A stretch of 64,000 nucleotides of DNA from Pirellulales bacterium (GCA_041736895.1 JBGSSS010000136.1:5641-69640), one strand, 5' to 3'; positions 45,160 to 64,000 are shown, counted from the stretch's first letter. Translations and numbers: made by a program. The notes: a model not told the origin generated them from the letters alone.

Positions 45160-47064
45160 TTAAAACTTAATCAACTCATACTGCTGCACTAGCGCGAGCA
45201 ACACCTCGTCCGCGACTTTGTCCGGGTCGTATTCGATCGTGACACCTTTGAGCTCTAGCAGTTCTTCCTTGTTCACGCGTTGGCTAATCGTGACCAGCTT
45301 CGTCGTCGGAGCGAGCTTCGCCAGGTCCTTAATCAATTGCGCGGCTTTCGCCGGATCGAACGCTTTGTCCTTGATCCGCATCTTCTTGAACGTCGCTTCT
45401 TTGAGCGTCACCGTGCGGTTGAAGACGAGTTTGTCCGGCGTGCTCTCTTTGTCGATGCAGAAGTAGCCCATGCGTTCAAACTGGAATTTGTCACCGACGG
45501 CTGCATCTTTCAACACCGGCTCGACCTTGGCGTCTTTCAGCACAACGAGCGACGCCGGGTTGATGTTGTCGAGGTATGTCTTCCCCGGTTCCAAATCGTC
45601 CGGATCGAGCTTGCTGAAGAGCGTGTCGTAGACGCGAACTTCGGCATTGAGCGCGTGCTCGGCCGAGACCCAATGGATCACGCCCTGGACCTTGCGGCCA
45701 TCGGCCGGATTCTTGCCGAGCGTTTCGGGATCGTGCGTGCAATGAAGTTCGGTGATGTTGCCCGCCGCGTCCTTGACGACGTTCGTGCACTTGACGACGT
45801 AACCGTAGCGGAGGCGAACCTCGGCACCCGGCGCGAGGCGGAAGAATTTCTTCGGCGGGTTCTCGAGGAAATCCTCGCGTTCGATGTACAGCACGCGACT
45901 GAACGGAATCTGCCGCGAGCCGGCGCTCGGGTCCTCCGGATTGTTCACCGCGTCGAGGAGTTCGACCTGCCCCTCGGGATAGCTCGTGATGATGAGTTTC
46001 AGCGGGTGCAGGACGCCCATCACGCGGTTGGCGGTTTTGTTCAGGTCCTCGCGGATGCAGTTTTCGAGCAGCCCCAGTTCGTTTTTGCTTTCGGTCTTGG
46101 TGATGCCGATTCGATCGCAAAACAGCCGCATCCCGGCGGGCGTGTACCCGCGGCGGCGAATGCCGCAGATCGTCGGCATCCGCGGATCATCCCACCCGCG
46201 CACATAGTTGCCTTTGACGAGTTCGAGTAACCGCCGCTTGCTCATCACCGTGTATGTGAGATTCAATCTGGCGAATTCGATCTGCTGCGGCGCGTGGATG
46301 CCGAGTTCCGCAATGAACCAGTCATACAACGGGCGATGGTTCTCGAATTCGAGTGTGCAGATCGAGTGCGTGATCCCTTCCAGACTGTCACTTTGCCCGT
46401 GGGCGTAATCGTACATCGGGTAGATGCACCACTTGTCGCCCGTGTTGTGATGCGTCGCGTGCAGGATACGGTACAAGACCGGATCACGCAGGTTCACGTT
46501 CGGCGAGGCCATGTCGATCTTCGCGCGCAACGTTCGGCTCGCGTCGGGAAACTCGCCAGCCTTCATCCGCGCGAACAGATCGAGATTTTCCGCCACTGGC
46601 CGCTCACGATAAGGGCTGTTCTTGCCCGGCTCGTTCAGCGTGCCGCGATACTCGCGGACTTGATCGCCGGTCAGGTCGCAGACGTAAGCCTTGCCCTTCT
46701 TGATCAGCTCGACCGCCCAATCATAGAGCTGATCGAAGTACGAGCTCGCCCAGAACATGTTGTCCCAGTTGAACCCGAGCCAGCGGACGTCGTCCTTGAT
46801 GCTATTGACGTACTCTTCGTCTTCCTTCGTCGGGTTCGTATCATCAAACCGCAGATTGCACTTGCCGCCGTAGTCGCGCGCGATGCCAAAGTTCAAGCAG
46901 ATGCTCTTGGCATGCCCAATGTGCAGGTATCCATTTGGCTCGGGCGGAAAACGCGTCAGGACCTTGCCGCCGAAGCGTCCGGTGCGGTTGTGCTCGTCGA
47001 TGATGTCGCGGATGAAGTTCGACGGTTTGTCAGCGGCGTCAGGAGTTTTGGATTCGTTGCTCAT
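45160..47064 (-). CDS. glnS: glutaminyl-tRNA synthetase with ~65-75 aa C-terminal extension
   Basis: [14 protein letters not shown] (HIGH) and VMSKR (KMSKS). The GlnRS-type anticodon domain ends near [11 protein letters not shown], then 77 further residues follow. Confidence 0.9.
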
Positions 47065-47239: not shown

Positions 47240-47854
47240 TTATTCGGTTTCTACTCTTAGACTTTCCAAATCGGCCTCGACTTCATGCTTCCATTCCTGT
47301 CGATATTTGAGAATGCAGCATGCAGCAGCGATCAGTGTGATCACTGGCGAAAAATAAATTAGACCATTCACACCGTTGCGCACCCAAGTCAAGCTATTAG
47401 GTCGTGCATCAACGCGGAATGCTAGAAGATCACCAGGATAACGAGGCTGAAACCCGATTCCGATTTGCCCGATACCACCAAAAATTAACCAGACAACCAT
47501 AGCGATGACTGCAGCCCAGACGATGAATTTATTTGCTTGATGTATCATACAACACCTTTTAGAGGCGATTGCCAAAACGAGAAGATAAAGAACTCCATTG
47601 AGAAAACCACCAAGCAAACCATAGCCGGCTCCGTGGAGAATGATTGTTAGCCAAGGTAACGTAACATAGTACGTTTGCTGCGGTACATTAAAGTATTCCT
47701 TTGAAATGACTCGACTCAAGGAACTTGTGAGAACTCCAATGAGAATTCCAACGCACACACTGAATAACAAAATGAAACCTATCTCACGCCTATGAAGACA
47801 TGGTGGCAATCTTTTTATTATTGCTGCCTGCGGCGGAGAGTAGGGGTTTTCCAT
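47240..47854 (-). CDS. polytopic membrane protein, unknown function, low G+C
   Basis: 204 aa with five or six hydrophobic helices. It is clearly more AT-rich than the flanking aaRS genes. Confidence 0.5.
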   Translation of the reverse strand: MENPYSPPQAAIIKRLPPCLHRREIGFILLFSVCVGILIGVLTSSLSRVISKEYFNVPQQTYYVTLPWLTIILHGAGYGLLGGFLNGVLYLLVLAIASKRCCMIHQANKFIVWAAVIAMVVWLIFGGIGQIGIGFQPRYPGDLLAFRVDARPNSLTWVRNGVNGLIYFSPVITLIAAACCILKYRQEWKHEVEADLESLRVETE

Positions 47855-47865
47855 AAGAATAAATC

Positions 47866-49716
47866 TTAGGCAGTTTGCTTGCTAAGCATCAAGTCGATAC
47901 GAGCTAAGCAACGTTCTTTACCCAAGATCGCCAGCGTATCGTACAGCCCCATCCCGACGGTTTTCCCGCAGAGGGCCAGTCGTAGCGGATGAATCAACTC
48001 GCCGACTTTCACGCCGCGGGCATCGACAAAGGCCTTGAGCGCCGTTTCGAGCGGACCGACTTCGAACGCTTCGATCTTCGCTAGTTCGTGGCGGAACGCG
48101 GCGAGCAGGTCGCGCGCGCCGGGTTTGGCGAATGTCTTCGTGAGCTCTTCGGCGTTCACCGGCAAAGCCTCGTCAGACACAAAGAACTCGCTGAAGTTCA
48201 GGATGTCGCCGTAGACCTTGAGCCGGTCGCCGGCCGCTTCGATGATTTTGGTTACTTCTGGCCCCGTGGAGCATTCGGTCTTCTCAGGCAGCAAGCCGGC
48301 GCGTTTCAAGTAGTCAATCATCCGCGGCGTTTTCTTCTTCGCCGGCAGTTCGGCAAAGTAGTGCTCCTGGAACGACATGAGCTTTTTGGGATCGAAGCTG
48401 GCCGGGGCTTTGTTGACGCGTTCGAGCGAGAATCCTTTGATCATCTCCTCTTGCGTGAAGTATTCGGTTTTGTCATCGAACGACCAGCCGAGCAGTAGCA
48501 AGTAATTTACGATCGCGTGAGGTAAGTAGCCGACTTGTTCGTAAAAATCGACGATCACCGGGTTGAAAGTTTCATCTATCAAATCATAAATTTTCGAAGC
48601 ATTTTTTATGCTTTTGATATAACTTCTGGCATAATTCTCGTTATCTAAAATTTCCAGAATTTGCCTAGTCATTTGCAAAGTAAATTCTGTGGTAAACACC
48701 GACTTTGATTTATCTAGTGCTGCAAATTGTGCTTTGACAACTATTTCTTTTAAAAGACTGATACAGTCAGGTTCATCAAGAAATTCATTTGGAATATCTT
48801 CTAGTATCTGCACAATTGCCTGATCAATTCTTTTTTCCGCATCTTTGATTGCCAGCCCAATTTTCTTGCCATGATCATTCACTGCCGCAAAATCCTTGTT
48901 TAGTAAATATTTTGGTAGCTTCCGCTTGCTGAGCTTCGTCTTGCTCCCCGGTTCTGCAACGTAGGGCAAGTGCGCGTAGCGCGGCAGTTCGTACCCTAGG
49001 GACTGTGCAATGAAGATCTGGCGCGGCGTGTTGCTCAGGTGTTCTTCGGCGCGGATCACGTGGCTGATTTGCATGTCGTAGTCATCGACGACGCTCGCCA
49101 AGTGATACAGGCACGTCCCGTCGGCGCGTTGGATAACGTGGTCGCTTTCGTTGGCCCATTGGAACTCGACCTGGCCGCGGATGAGGTCGTCGATGACGAG
49201 CGTGCCCTCGCGCGGCATGAAGAGTCGGACGACGGCTTGCCGACCTGCTGCCTTCGCTTCCGCGATTCGCCCGGCATTCTCGGGCAGCGACGGATGCTCA
49301 GCCCAATCGCGGGGATACACGAAGTTTTGCTTCGCTTTCTCGGCCGCTTCGCGCAGTTTCACGATCTCGGCCGGATCGGCGTAATCGCGGTAGGCGTGGC
49401 CGCTCGCGAGGAGCTTCTCGGCGGCCGCGCGATACTTATCGCCGCGCTGCGATTGAAAGTACGGCGCGTGGGGGCCGGTGCTGCTGGTGCCGTCCTTGGT
49501 CGGCCCTTCGTCCCAGTCGATGCCGAGCCACTCGAAGCCGTGCAGAATCGGCTGCAGCGCCGCCGAGACGTTGCGTTCGGCATCGGTGTCGTCGATGCGC
49601 AGCAGGAACTCCCCGCCGTGTTGCCGCGCGAACAGCCAATTGAACAGCGCCGTACGCACGCCGCCGATGTGCAGGTAACCAGTCGGGCTGGGAGCGAAAC
49701 GAGTACGAACCTTCAT
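47866..49716 (-). CDS. gltX: glutamyl-tRNA synthetase carrying a ~115-aa AT-rich in-frame insertion after the KMSKS loop
   Basis: SPTGYLHIGG (HIGH), KLSKRK (KMSKS) and GYLPHAIVNYLLLLGW. 616 aa from the ATG at 49716, versus the roughly 470-500 aa typical of bacterial GluRS. Confidence 0.9.
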   Translation of the reverse strand: MKVRTRFAPSPTGYLHIGGVRTALFNWLFARQHGGEFLLRIDDTDAERNVSAALQPILHGFEWLGIDWDEGPTKDGTSSTGPHAPYFQSQRGDKYRAAAEKLLASGHAYRDYADPAEIVKLREAAEKAKQNFVYPRDWAEHPSLPENAGRIAEAKAAGRQAVVRLFMPREGTLVIDDLIRGQVEFQWANESDHVIQRADGTCLYHLASVVDDYDMQISHVIRAEEHLSNTPRQIFIAQSLGYELPRYAHLPYVAEPGSKTKLSKRKLPKYLLNKDFAAVNDHGKKIGLAIKDAEKRIDQAIVQILEDIPNEFLDEPDCISLLKEIVVKAQFAALDKSKSVFTTEFTLQMTRQILEILDNENYARSYIKSIKNASKIYDLIDETFNPVIVDFYEQVGYLPHAIVNYLLLLGWSFDDKTEYFTQEEMIKGFSLERVNKAPASFDPKKLMSFQEHYFAELPAKKKTPRMIDYLKRAGLLPEKTECSTGPEVTKIIEAAGDRLKVYGDILNFSEFFVSDEALPVNAEELTKTFAKPGARDLLAAFRHELAKIEAFEVGPLETALKAFVDARGVKVGELIHPLRLALCGKTVGMGLYDTLAILGKERCLARIDLMLSKQTA

Positions 49717-49996
49717 CGGGTCAATCGCGTGCGAGGAAATGGCGAAAAGTAGCTCGAAGCCGTGCTTCGAGCGATTCGTTCGTAGCAATGGCTACGAACT
49801 ACTTGAGTTGACTGCATCACTGGCAGTCGCTGCCATTATAGAAATTACGCCGCATGGCGCGCAGGGCTAATTGCTTCGCCGCAAAAATGAGCGGGGAGAG
49901 TTTTTTGCCGCAAAGAAAACAAAGAAAGCAAAGAGGGGGAGCAAGTTTTGCCTCGGTACAACTTCTTCCTCCATACTCCTTCCTTCTTCCTCCTGA

Positions 49997-62184: not shown

Positions 62185-64000
62185 ATGTTGAATGTGACGG
62201 CATGGAAGCAGTGTCAGGGATATTTTGCTTTGGCTTTAATGGGCGGCGCGTTGGCAGGCGTGACCGCGCTCGCACAGCAAGCCCCCAAAGCTCCGGCGGT
62301 GTTGGCTCCCAACATCAGCGCCAAGCGAATCCCAATCCCAGCTCCGGCGCCAACGATTCCACAAGCTCCGTCGAAGTTCGCGCCGACGCAACCGACGCCT
62401 GCGCCGCTTGTTCCGCCGGGCCTGCGCAGCGCGCGGCGTGACCCGCACTTGCCGAACACTGCGCAACCGGTTCCGTCAACAACTCCGGTTGTTAAGCCCG
62501 CCGCGCCCAAGACGGTTCCGGCCAAACCCGTCCCGGTGTCGCCAGCCCCAACATCGCAATCCAAGCCAACGCCCAAAACAGAAATCGCCAAGCCCACGAC
62601 CCCGCCGGCGCAACTAAGTCCAGCCCAGCCACGACCAGCAGAATCGTCGGCGGTTGCCGCCGCGGTGAAGTCCGCGCCGCTGACGCCCGAATTGGTCCGG
62701 CTGAAGAACAAAATCAACGAGACGCTGGCCGTCTACTCGAAACGGCATCAAAACACACGCGACAACACGCCGTGGGAAGTGATGCATGCTTTTGTCGCGT
62801 TCAATGTCCGCACCGAAATCCGTCGCAATGGACCGAATGGTCCGCCGGTCAACGCGATCGGTTGGATTCTCTGGGGCCAACGCTGCAACGGCCAACCTTT
62901 GCTCACGTTATCGAATGGCCATCCCAAGGCCGAAATCGGCGTTGGCGTGCAAGGTCACCCCGGCCAGCTCACCGCGATTCTCGCGCAATCGCGCGTCAGC
63001 ATCGACACGCCGCTGAAAATCCAGGGCCGGGACTTCACGCTGCGTGACCTGCTCGAAGAAGAACGCCTCGGCTGCCGGCCGAACACCGAATTGACGTTTA
63101 GGCTGATCGCTCTCAGTCATTATTACGATCTGGATGAAACCTGGACGTCGAGCGATGGTCAGGAATGGAGCATTCCGCGGATCATCGAAGAAGAACTAAA
63201 AGCCCCGATCCGCGGCGCGGCCTGCGGCGGAACGCACCGATTGTTTGGCTTGACCTACGCCTATCAGCAACGTCTGAAGCGCGGCCAGCCGCTCGATGGC
63301 TCCTATGCCAAGGCCAAAGCCTACATCGAGAACTATCAGAAATACGCCTGGAGCTTGATGAATCCCGACGGCTCGTTCAGCACCTCGTGGTTCAACAAGG
63401 CCGAAAACCGCTCCGATGTCGATCGCAAGATCCAAACGACGGGCCATGTCATGGAATGGCTCATCCTCGCGCAAAACGATGCCGAACTCCGTTCCCCGCG
63501 GATGATGCGCGCAATGGATTACTTGGCAACACATCTGAAAAACGATCCGCAGCACGAGTGGAAACTTGGTCCGATGGGCCATGCCTTGCACACCCTGGTG
63601 ATGTACAACGAGCGAGTCTTTGGCGCGCCCAAGGTACCTGCCGAGATGGTCGCCAGTAGGGTCAAGCCAACTCAGCCGGCTCCGCAGCCGCAAAACCCGC
63701 TCAATCCCCAACCGGCGCAGCAACAGCCAATCAAGCAGCAACCGCTCTTCCCCGGCCAACCGCTGCCGCTTGAAGCGCCCTCGGCACCGAACTTGATCCC
63801 CGCGACGCCGCTCAAACAGCCGCAGGCCGAGGCCAAGCCAGATGCGAAGCCGATGCCTGAAGCAAAGCCGATCCCGGTAGAGGTCAATCCGTTTGAGGAC
63901 GAACCCGAGGCCAAGGTTCCCATGCCGGTCGATGCGCCGGATCTCGGACCAGGGCCGGCGAATTTGGCGCCGCCCAAGAAGCAGCGCGGCGACCAAGGCC
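62185..64000 (+). CDS. secreted Pro-rich protein with a conserved central domain (3' partial, runs off window)
   Basis: It is absent from the ORF track because no stop is reached. I translated 62185-63999 by hand and found no stop. An in-frame TGA lies at 62161-62163. Signal-like sequence MLNVTAWKQCQGYFALALMGGALAGVTALAQQ. The central domain contains ACGGTHRLFGL, NPDGSFSTSWF and TGHVMEWL. Confidence 0.65.
   Translation, partial: MLNVTAWKQCQGYFALALMGGALAGVTALAQQAPKAPAVLAPNISAKRIPIPAPAPTIPQAPSKFAPTQPTPAPLVPPGLRSARRDPHLPNTAQPVPSTTPVVKPAAPKTVPAKPVPVSPAPTSQSKPTPKTEIAKPTTPPAQLSPAQPRPAESSAVAAAVKSAPLTPELVRLKNKINETLAVYSKRHQNTRDNTPWEVMHAFVAFNVRTEIRRNGPNGPPVNAIGWILWGQRCNGQPLLTLSNGHPKAEIGVGVQGHPGQLTAILAQSRVSIDTPLKIQGRDFTLRDLLEEERLGCRPNTELTFRLIALSHYYDLDETWTSSDGQEWSIPRIIEEELKAPIRGAACGGTHRLFGLTYAYQQRLKRGQPLDGSYAKAKAYIENYQKYAWSLMNPDGSFSTSWFNKAENRSDVDRKIQTTGHVMEWLILAQNDAELRSPRMMRAMDYLATHLKNDPQHEWKLGPMGHALHTLVMYNERVFGAPKVPAEMVASRVKPTQPAPQPQNPLNPQPAQQQPIKQQPLFPGQPLPLEAPSAPNLIPATPLKQPQAEAKPDAKPMPEAKPIPVEVNPFEDEPEAKVPMPVDAPDLGPGPANLAPPKKQRGDQG

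Follow-up and report, generated by a model that had tools for sequence, protein, structure and literature searches.

Probable Recent Capture of an AT-Rich, In-Frame Segment in the Glutamyl-tRNA Synthetase Gene of a Hot-Spring Pirellulales Lineage

How does an essential, highly conserved enzyme come to carry a block of polypeptide whose coding DNA differs abruptly in composition from the rest of its gene? The question is raised by the glutamyl-tRNA synthetase (GluRS) gene, gltX, of a hot-spring planctomycete (Pirellulales bacterium; GCA_041736895.1, JBGSSS010000136.1:5641-69640). The source contig is metagenome derived, and the whole stretch analyzed, 64,000 nucleotides (nt) long, is called the window below. 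Here, we report the boundaries, composition, distribution, and predicted fold of an AT-rich, in-frame segment inside this gene. In our reading, to which we give a probability of about 0.6, foreign DNA of coding-like character was recently captured in a loop that tolerates insertion and is translated into a helical appendage.

Gene and insertion boundaries

The gene and the parts of it that bear on the question are listed here in window coordinates.

47866 to 49716, minus strand: gltX, glutamyl-tRNA synthetase, 616 amino acids (open reading frame [ORF] with ATG at 49716, stop included).
49660 to 49671, minus strand: HIGH motif, H16-I-G-G19, read from the sequence; alignment columns invariant (A1, A2).
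48922 to 48936, minus strand: KMSKS motif, K261-L-S-K-R265, placed by alignment to Escherichia coli GluRS (8i9i); columns invariant.
48847 to 48921, minus strand: retained positions 1 to 25 of the native loop, K266 to I290, KLPKYLLNKDFAAVNDHGKKIGLAI, recognized with a profile built from 81 distinct native loops (31.7 bits).
48574 to 48846, minus strand: insert proper, 273 nt, 91 codons, K291 to D381, delimited by DNA alignment with the orthologues L001, L003, and L006.
48556 to 48573, minus strand: right anchor, E382-T-F-N-P-V387, at which conserved GluRS sequence resumes; columns T383 to V387 invariant or near-invariant.

The 616-residue product is a class I bacterial GluRS by its motifs, Pfam domains, and sequence and fold similarity, and its start, MKVRTRFAPSPTGYLHIGG (MKVRTRF), is the same as in orthologues. 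The catalytic domain (PF00749) scored 292.7 bits (cutoff, 23.4; E = 3.5e-87) in a match broken in two by the insert, and the alpha-helical anticodon-binding domain (PF19269) scored 98.7 bits (cutoff, 23.6; E = 5e-28). The best solved structure by phmmer was 8jpv (E = 1e-94), with 1j09 and 8i9i also found, and with the full-length model as query, all top Foldseek matches were GluRS chains (E = 2e-28; probability, 1.00). Alignment to solved GluRS chains (E. coli, Thermus thermophilus, and others) covered residues 1 to 265 and 387 to 611 and left about 120 residues unmatched. In the alignment to 8i9i, residue 265 stands opposite chain residue 241, which pairs S263 with E. coli GltX Ser239.

The unmatched region falls in a loop of fixed length. 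In all 80 of the GTDB species representatives compared (Pirellulales and related planctomycetes), KLSKR and FNPV are separated by exactly 33 residues (consensus, KLDKYLKNxDFAxVNEHGxAIAxALGLxxxAET); this loop is itself extra relative to E. coli, in which about 3 residues part the two anchors. The window gene retains loop positions 1 to 25, with DNA about 73% identical to that of L001 and L003, and positions 32 and 33 (ET). The insert displaces positions 26 to 31 (6 residues; GLSLAA in the closest relatives), for a net gain of 85 residues.

A preliminary description of this DNA had reported normal HIGH and KMSKS motifs and about 115 extra residues, with the reading frame kept on both sides. The motifs are indeed in place (HIGG at 16 to 19 and KLSKR at 261 to 265), the insert contains no stop and has a length divisible by 3, and an extra segment exists, unmatched in solved chains and splitting the PF00749 match. 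The size needed revision: the new part is 91 residues, and the stretch between KLSKR and FNPV opens with 25 residues and closes with 2 that are native loop.

Composition and contig support

The GC content of 100-nt windows is 0.30 to 0.34 over 48550 to 48850 and reaches its minimum, 0.25, at 48563, in a 64-kb window that averages 0.574 (standard deviation, 0.05; 300-nt windows). The low-GC block was delimited as a maximum-scoring segment.

48563 to 48913, no strand assigned: maximal AT-rich segment, GC content 0.32, taking in the insert as well as the native loop, which itself leans toward AT.

This block has the lowest 200-, 300-, and 350-nt GC content in the 64 kb. The remaining AT-rich patches fall between genes or at the ends of ORFs, and the gltX block is the only internal block of low GC content at third codon positions (GC3) among the large ORFs. 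Within the insert, the GC content is 0.31, and at first, second, and third codon positions (GC1, GC2, and GC3) it is 0.44, 0.25, and 0.24, versus 0.62, 0.40, and 0.75 in the rest of gltX; the AT richness thus comes from codon choice and not from amino acid content alone. The block had been called compositionally foreign, and both the windowed GC content, an outlier for the window, and the GC3 (0.24 versus 0.75) bear this out. A second low-GC3 block (63274 to 63468) was rejected as a candidate and sits in an apparently spurious antisense ORF.

The insert also has a coding-like pattern. Purines occupy 70% of its first codon positions, and GC1 exceeds both GC2 and GC3. Of its six frames, a single one is open; each of the other five holds 4 to 9 stops, and a fraction of just 2.2e-4 of composition-matched shuffles stays open. 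The pattern looks like the coding sequence of a genome of about 30% GC.

Could the insert be an assembly chimera, or could it be lost from the RNA or the protein as an intron, by translational bypass, or by splicing? The contig is metagenome derived, and the RNA-seq runs searched lack the locus, both of which leave room for such an explanation. A chimera is contradicted by Logan contigs from four hot-spring metagenome runs (X1 to X4), which cross both junctions with 0 differences (for example, X2, 48387 to 48773 and 48770 to 48951; X3, 48624 to 48951). The lone “skip 349” joint in X1, considered as an excised form, was rejected because it stems from a co-occurring high-GC relative with a native loop. 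Removal is opposed by a length that is a multiple of 3, by the absence of stops in an AT-rich context (p ~2e-4), and by the lack of any Rfam match or intein motifs in the insert. We regard artifact or removal as barely credible, and the AT-rich, in-frame segment inside gltX is confirmed as real.

Distribution and timing

The closest orthologues (P0002/L003, P0003/L001, and P0005/L006-L007) are 533 to 534 amino acids long and have a plain loop with no insert. Outside the loop, their amino acid identity to the window protein is 89 to 93% (about 93% for L001 and L003; 89% for L006), and synonymous divergence (dS) between the window gene and these orthologues is 0.64 to 0.85 (0.64 to 0.69 for the nearest). 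The ratio of nonsynonymous to synonymous divergence (dN/dS), again outside the loop, is 0.07 to 0.09 for the window gltX and 0.054 to 0.076 in insert-free pairs, so the host gene is still under strong purifying selection. Despite this dS, the GC3 of the insert has barely ameliorated, which places the insertion probably late on the window’s branch. The segment had been proposed to be recently acquired rather than ancestral, and the comparison agrees: orthologues about 93% identical lack it, 80 of 80 representatives have the plain loop, and none of the relatives compared carries a homologous insert of normal composition.

The native loop of this clade has a composition of its own. In the insert-free L001, L003, and L006, the 32 residues from SKRK to FNPV are AT shifted (GC3, 0.44 to 0.56 versus 0.69 to 0.76 in the rest of the gene), and the same loop in most other Pirellulales species has a GC3 of 0.7 to 0.97; the comparison covers only 32 codons, and the clade shift could be noise.

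Other insertions in the same loop

Four other lineages carry extra residues in this loop. For each insert-bearing gene, GC3 is given for the span from SKRK to FNPV and then for the rest of the gene.

Window gltX: 91 extra residues; GC3, 0.265 and 0.77.
P0004/L002, same shallow clade: 101 extra residues; GC3, 0.42 and 0.77.
P0006/L004, sister, 75% identity: 110 extra residues; GC3, 0.39 and 0.70.
P0079/L005, 66% identity: 116 extra residues; GC3, 0.51 and 0.72.
L093, planctomycete, locus GC content 0.66: about 100 extra residues; GC3, 0.67 and 0.92.

All five inserts are AT shifted against their own host genes, and all five genes return to conserved sequence within 2 residues of the FNP motif. 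The L004-type insert was found again in an independent Joint Genome Institute (JGI) sample (L091), with 1 difference in 1,881 nt. None of the inserts of the four other lineages resembles the window insert at the protein or DNA level. At a dS of about 0.65 between the window gene and L002, homologous neutral sequence should still align, so the two inserts are separate acquisitions or one is a replacement.

The sole significant pair among the inserts is L093-L004 (z = 7), whose shared core is the C-terminal, native-loop-like part. In L004, L005, and L093, the last 30 to 40 residues of the extra segment match native loops (z, 4.2 to 6.8), with weak second profile matches, which suggests that a partial loop duplication accompanied insertion in these three lineages. 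The window insert has no such trace against native loops (z, 0.6). The loop-like C-terminal copies lie within L004 8076 to 8494, L005 863 to 1302, and L093 4356 to 4747.

These copies bear on an origin in place, in which gltX or other sequence of the same genome was duplicated or expanded, diverged fast, and drifted toward AT. Along with the loop-like C termini, the AT shift of the native loop in the clade (GC3, 0.44 to 0.56) would fit such a history. The window insert itself does not: it resembles neither its own protein (z, 0.02) nor the native loops, nor anything in the window or the related loci. At a dS of about 0.65, homology would still be visible, and a fall in GC3 from 0.75 to 0.24 is not possible over such a distance. 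An origin in place is accordingly very unlikely for the window insert.

Search for relatives and signs of mobility

Searched alone, the insert found no homologue in any database used. Neither JGI metagenome and IMG/VR viral contigs (peptide-pattern scan with tblastn confirmation) nor phage and plasmid collections (tblastn) contained a relative, and Pfam and PHROGs returned subthreshold noise only. Comparison as DNA and in translation showed no copy of it and no similarity to it among 87 related loci or elsewhere in the 64-kb window. Our literature searches turned up no report of a planctomycete GluRS with an insertion at this site. Of the features expected of horizontally acquired DNA, atypical composition and absence from close relatives were observed, and an identifiable donor or homologue was not.

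A Planctomycetaceae metagenome-assembled genome (L076; JAITKS010000234.1) has a locus GC content of 0.35 and a loop GC3 of 0.18, with no similarity to the insert there; AT-rich planctomycetes thus exist and are conceivable AT-rich donors.

Essential, conserved genes are typical homing sites, and a degenerate intein or homing-endonuclease remnant would be at home in gltX. The termini do not fit: the insert starts with KDAEK and ends with YDLID followed by ET, with no Cys, Ser, or Thr in first position and no His-Asn plus nucleophile. No such family reached the Pfam threshold with either the whole protein or a 116-residue segment around the insert. Known mini-inteins have about 130 residues, and the insert, at 91, is below that size. 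The same-site inserts of the other lineages are nonhomologous, unlike homing elements. Matches of about 2.5 kb to GluRS among the GTDB loci were considered as inteins and rejected; their extra length is the adjacent glnS, which matches the N terminus of the query.

The other form of a mobile or selfish origin is a miniature inverted-repeat transposable element (MITE) of the kind represented by the Rickettsia palindromic elements (RPEs), for which short in-frame elements in housekeeping genes are known (PMC10969869). The insert has no terminal inverted repeats, no end or target-site duplication, and no palindrome (chance-level repeats of 8 to 15 nt only), its RNA fold is not unusual (z, −1.2), and, as noted above, no second copy was found in the window, the 87 related loci, or the metagenome, viral, phage, and plasmid collections. 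The reading as a mobile or selfish element is largely refuted, and we hold it to be highly improbable.

Predicted fold

A helical insertion had been anticipated from the sequence, and structure prediction likewise gives an all-helical segment. AlphaFold2, run on a 40-sequence alignment in which no sequence covers the insert, modeled the protein with a mean predicted local distance difference test score (pLDDT) of 83 and predicted helices at residues 274 to 307, 316 to 336, 340 to 358, and 360 to 372 with a pLDDT of about 70 to 80. The first of these would prolong the helix of the native loop. Modeled alone, the insert fragment was also predicted as helical at low confidence (pLDDT, 60), and a fold search with this low-confidence model found no structural neighbor below E = 2. 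The peptide is acidic (17 D plus E versus 12 K plus R). The tRNA-binding domains appended to aminoacyl-tRNA synthetases (aaRSs) are lysine rich, and the acidic character argues against a tRNA-binding role.

Interpretation

We propose that 273 bp of AT-rich, coding-like DNA, probably foreign, was captured in frame in gltX of one Pirellulales lineage. The capture would have taken place near the end of the 33-residue loop that follows KMSKS, replaced six native codons, and probably proceeded by illegitimate recombination. The insert would be translated and kept in the mature enzyme as an appendage of three to four predicted helices. The enzyme presumably remains a working GluRS, and the insert would be a tolerated passenger, neutral or mildly modulatory, without a dedicated function. 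A loop that tolerates large insertions would explain why related lineages hold other inserts there. The reading of the preliminary description, a recent, foreign, helical insertion domain, is supported overall: the orthologues gave no homologous insert of normal composition, the solved GluRS chains gave no counterpart of the segment, and the windowed GC content is not ordinary.

Several points weigh against a captured passenger. The gltX locus occurred in no RNA-seq run searched. No donor sequence was found, and composition and phyletic pattern are what point to a foreign origin. The exhaustive phmmer search with the 91-residue insert had no match among 1.84e9 representative proteins, in a library clustered at 50% identity in which inserts inside GluRS clusters can stay hidden, and a word-index search of 5.8e9 proteins with the insert alone, insensitive enough that the window’s own protein was not returned, also found none. 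At least four different inserts at one loop in a narrow set of lineages, versus 0 of 80 elsewhere, are more than one would obviously expect of a passive, permissive loop, and selection for the appendage could be involved. Finally, two residues beside the insert are changed, D268P (D268 is conserved) and K272L (K272 is at least 90% conserved in the alignments), and these changes could be an adaptation to a functional module.

The last two points lead to the rival that we take most seriously, although we think it unlikely: a selected functional module beside the KMSKS loop, serving protein contact, regulation, or the shielding of the KMSKS serine against GluRS-targeting toxins of the HipA type, and gained repeatedly in related lineages because the appendage is advantageous. 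HipA phosphorylates E. coli GltX at Ser239 (PMC8262856), and the insert begins 28 residues past S263, the equivalent residue. The occurrence of five insert types at one loop in a narrow group of lineages, versus 0 of 80 other species, the altered conserved residues adjoining the insert, the recurrence of the L004-type insert in an independent sample, which indicates that it is stably carried, and the prediction of ordered helices rather than disorder all speak for such a module. Against it, the inserts share no sequence beyond retained native loop, no known domain matches the fold and no family the sequence, and close relatives manage without an insert. The window insert is known as a single sequence, so that selection on it is not measurable, and the HipA link is positional only, a HipA-type kinase not having been sought in the window.

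A broader reading, which we consider improbable, takes the post-KMSKS loop as a landing pad in one Pirellulales clade, where unrelated foreign or new sequences would be repeatedly captured and kept as helical domains, possibly because they are advantageous, for example against GluRS-targeting toxins. The five inserts, from GC3 0.24/0.75 to 0.67/0.92, would then represent stages in the birth of a domain. For the window insert itself, we continue to prefer recent capture as a tolerated passenger.

Neighborhood

The gene downstream of gltX is also of unusual composition.

47240 to 47854, minus strand: orphan membrane-like ORF, 204 amino acids, GC content 0.44, GC3 0.40, located in a slot of variable content that separates gltX from glnS.

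Its start lies 12 nt beyond the end of gltX. It matches no Pfam or PHROG family, and among 5.8e9 proteins it found only itself. In relatives, the slot holds DUF6714 (L001, L003, and L006) or other genes (L002 and L003). A low-GC orphan in a variable slot indicates that this neighborhood takes up foreign DNA.

Two further observations concern the flanks. The glutaminyl-tRNA synthetase (GlnRS; 45160 to 47064, minus strand; 634 amino acids) runs on for about 90 C-terminal residues after its final Pfam domain (end, residue 538); the protein is 629 to 634 amino acids long in relatives, and the clade has thus conserved this extension. A GC-rich hairpin and the T-run after it (49752 to 49772, minus strand) precede the gltX ATG by about 35 nt. 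This terminator-like feature falls within a longer TTG-initiated ORF and could either terminate the upstream gene or act as a leader element.

Significance and comparison with known systems

Many aaRSs have insertions restricted to particular lineages, but the origins of these are almost never visible because the insertions are old. The window insert keeps the composition of its source and is bracketed by insert-free orthologues. Together with the other inserts in the same loop, which stand at varied compositional distances from their hosts, it forms a natural series of how a constrained essential enzyme gains polypeptide, and the series bears on whether new material is tolerated at first as a passenger or is selected for from the beginning. 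Protein engineers can make use of a GluRS loop with room for about 100 additional residues, and such inserts are a warning to annotation and phylogeny pipelines built on the assumption that orthologues are collinear.

Four known systems offer comparisons. Mini-inteins resemble the window insert in sitting in frame, near an active-site motif, where an essential enzyme is highly conserved; the insert differs in having no splicing nucleophiles and no terminal His-Asn, in being too short, and in being expected to stay in the protein. The amelioration model of Lawrence and Ochman reportedly deals with horizontally acquired islands of atypical composition. Such islands share with this locus an abrupt low-GC block that is absent in close relatives and, here, lies beside a variable slot with a low-GC orphan, but the window insert is neither a gene nor an island: it is a subgenic piece joined in frame within an essential gene. 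RPEs and other MITEs are likewise short DNA placed in frame in housekeeping genes and read through as a fold-compatible peptide (PMC10969869); RPEs are about 150 bp, palindromic, and multicopy, in families with a conserved peptide, whereas the window insert is 273 bp and has no inverted repeats or end duplications, and no other copy of it was found.

The closest likeness is to the idiosyncratic insertions of aaRSs (those of trypanosomatids and Plasmodium, and the connective peptide [CP] domains of class I enzymes), which, as here, are additions at surface loops that leave HIGH and KMSKS intact, are lineage restricted, and often have no known function. The window insert differs from them in being very young, in its foreign GC3, in having no homologue found, and in sharing its site with at least four unlike inserts. 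Idiosyncratic aaRS insertions are thus already known as a class, and this one is set apart by being young, orphan, and foreign in composition, and by lying where unrelated inserts have recurred.

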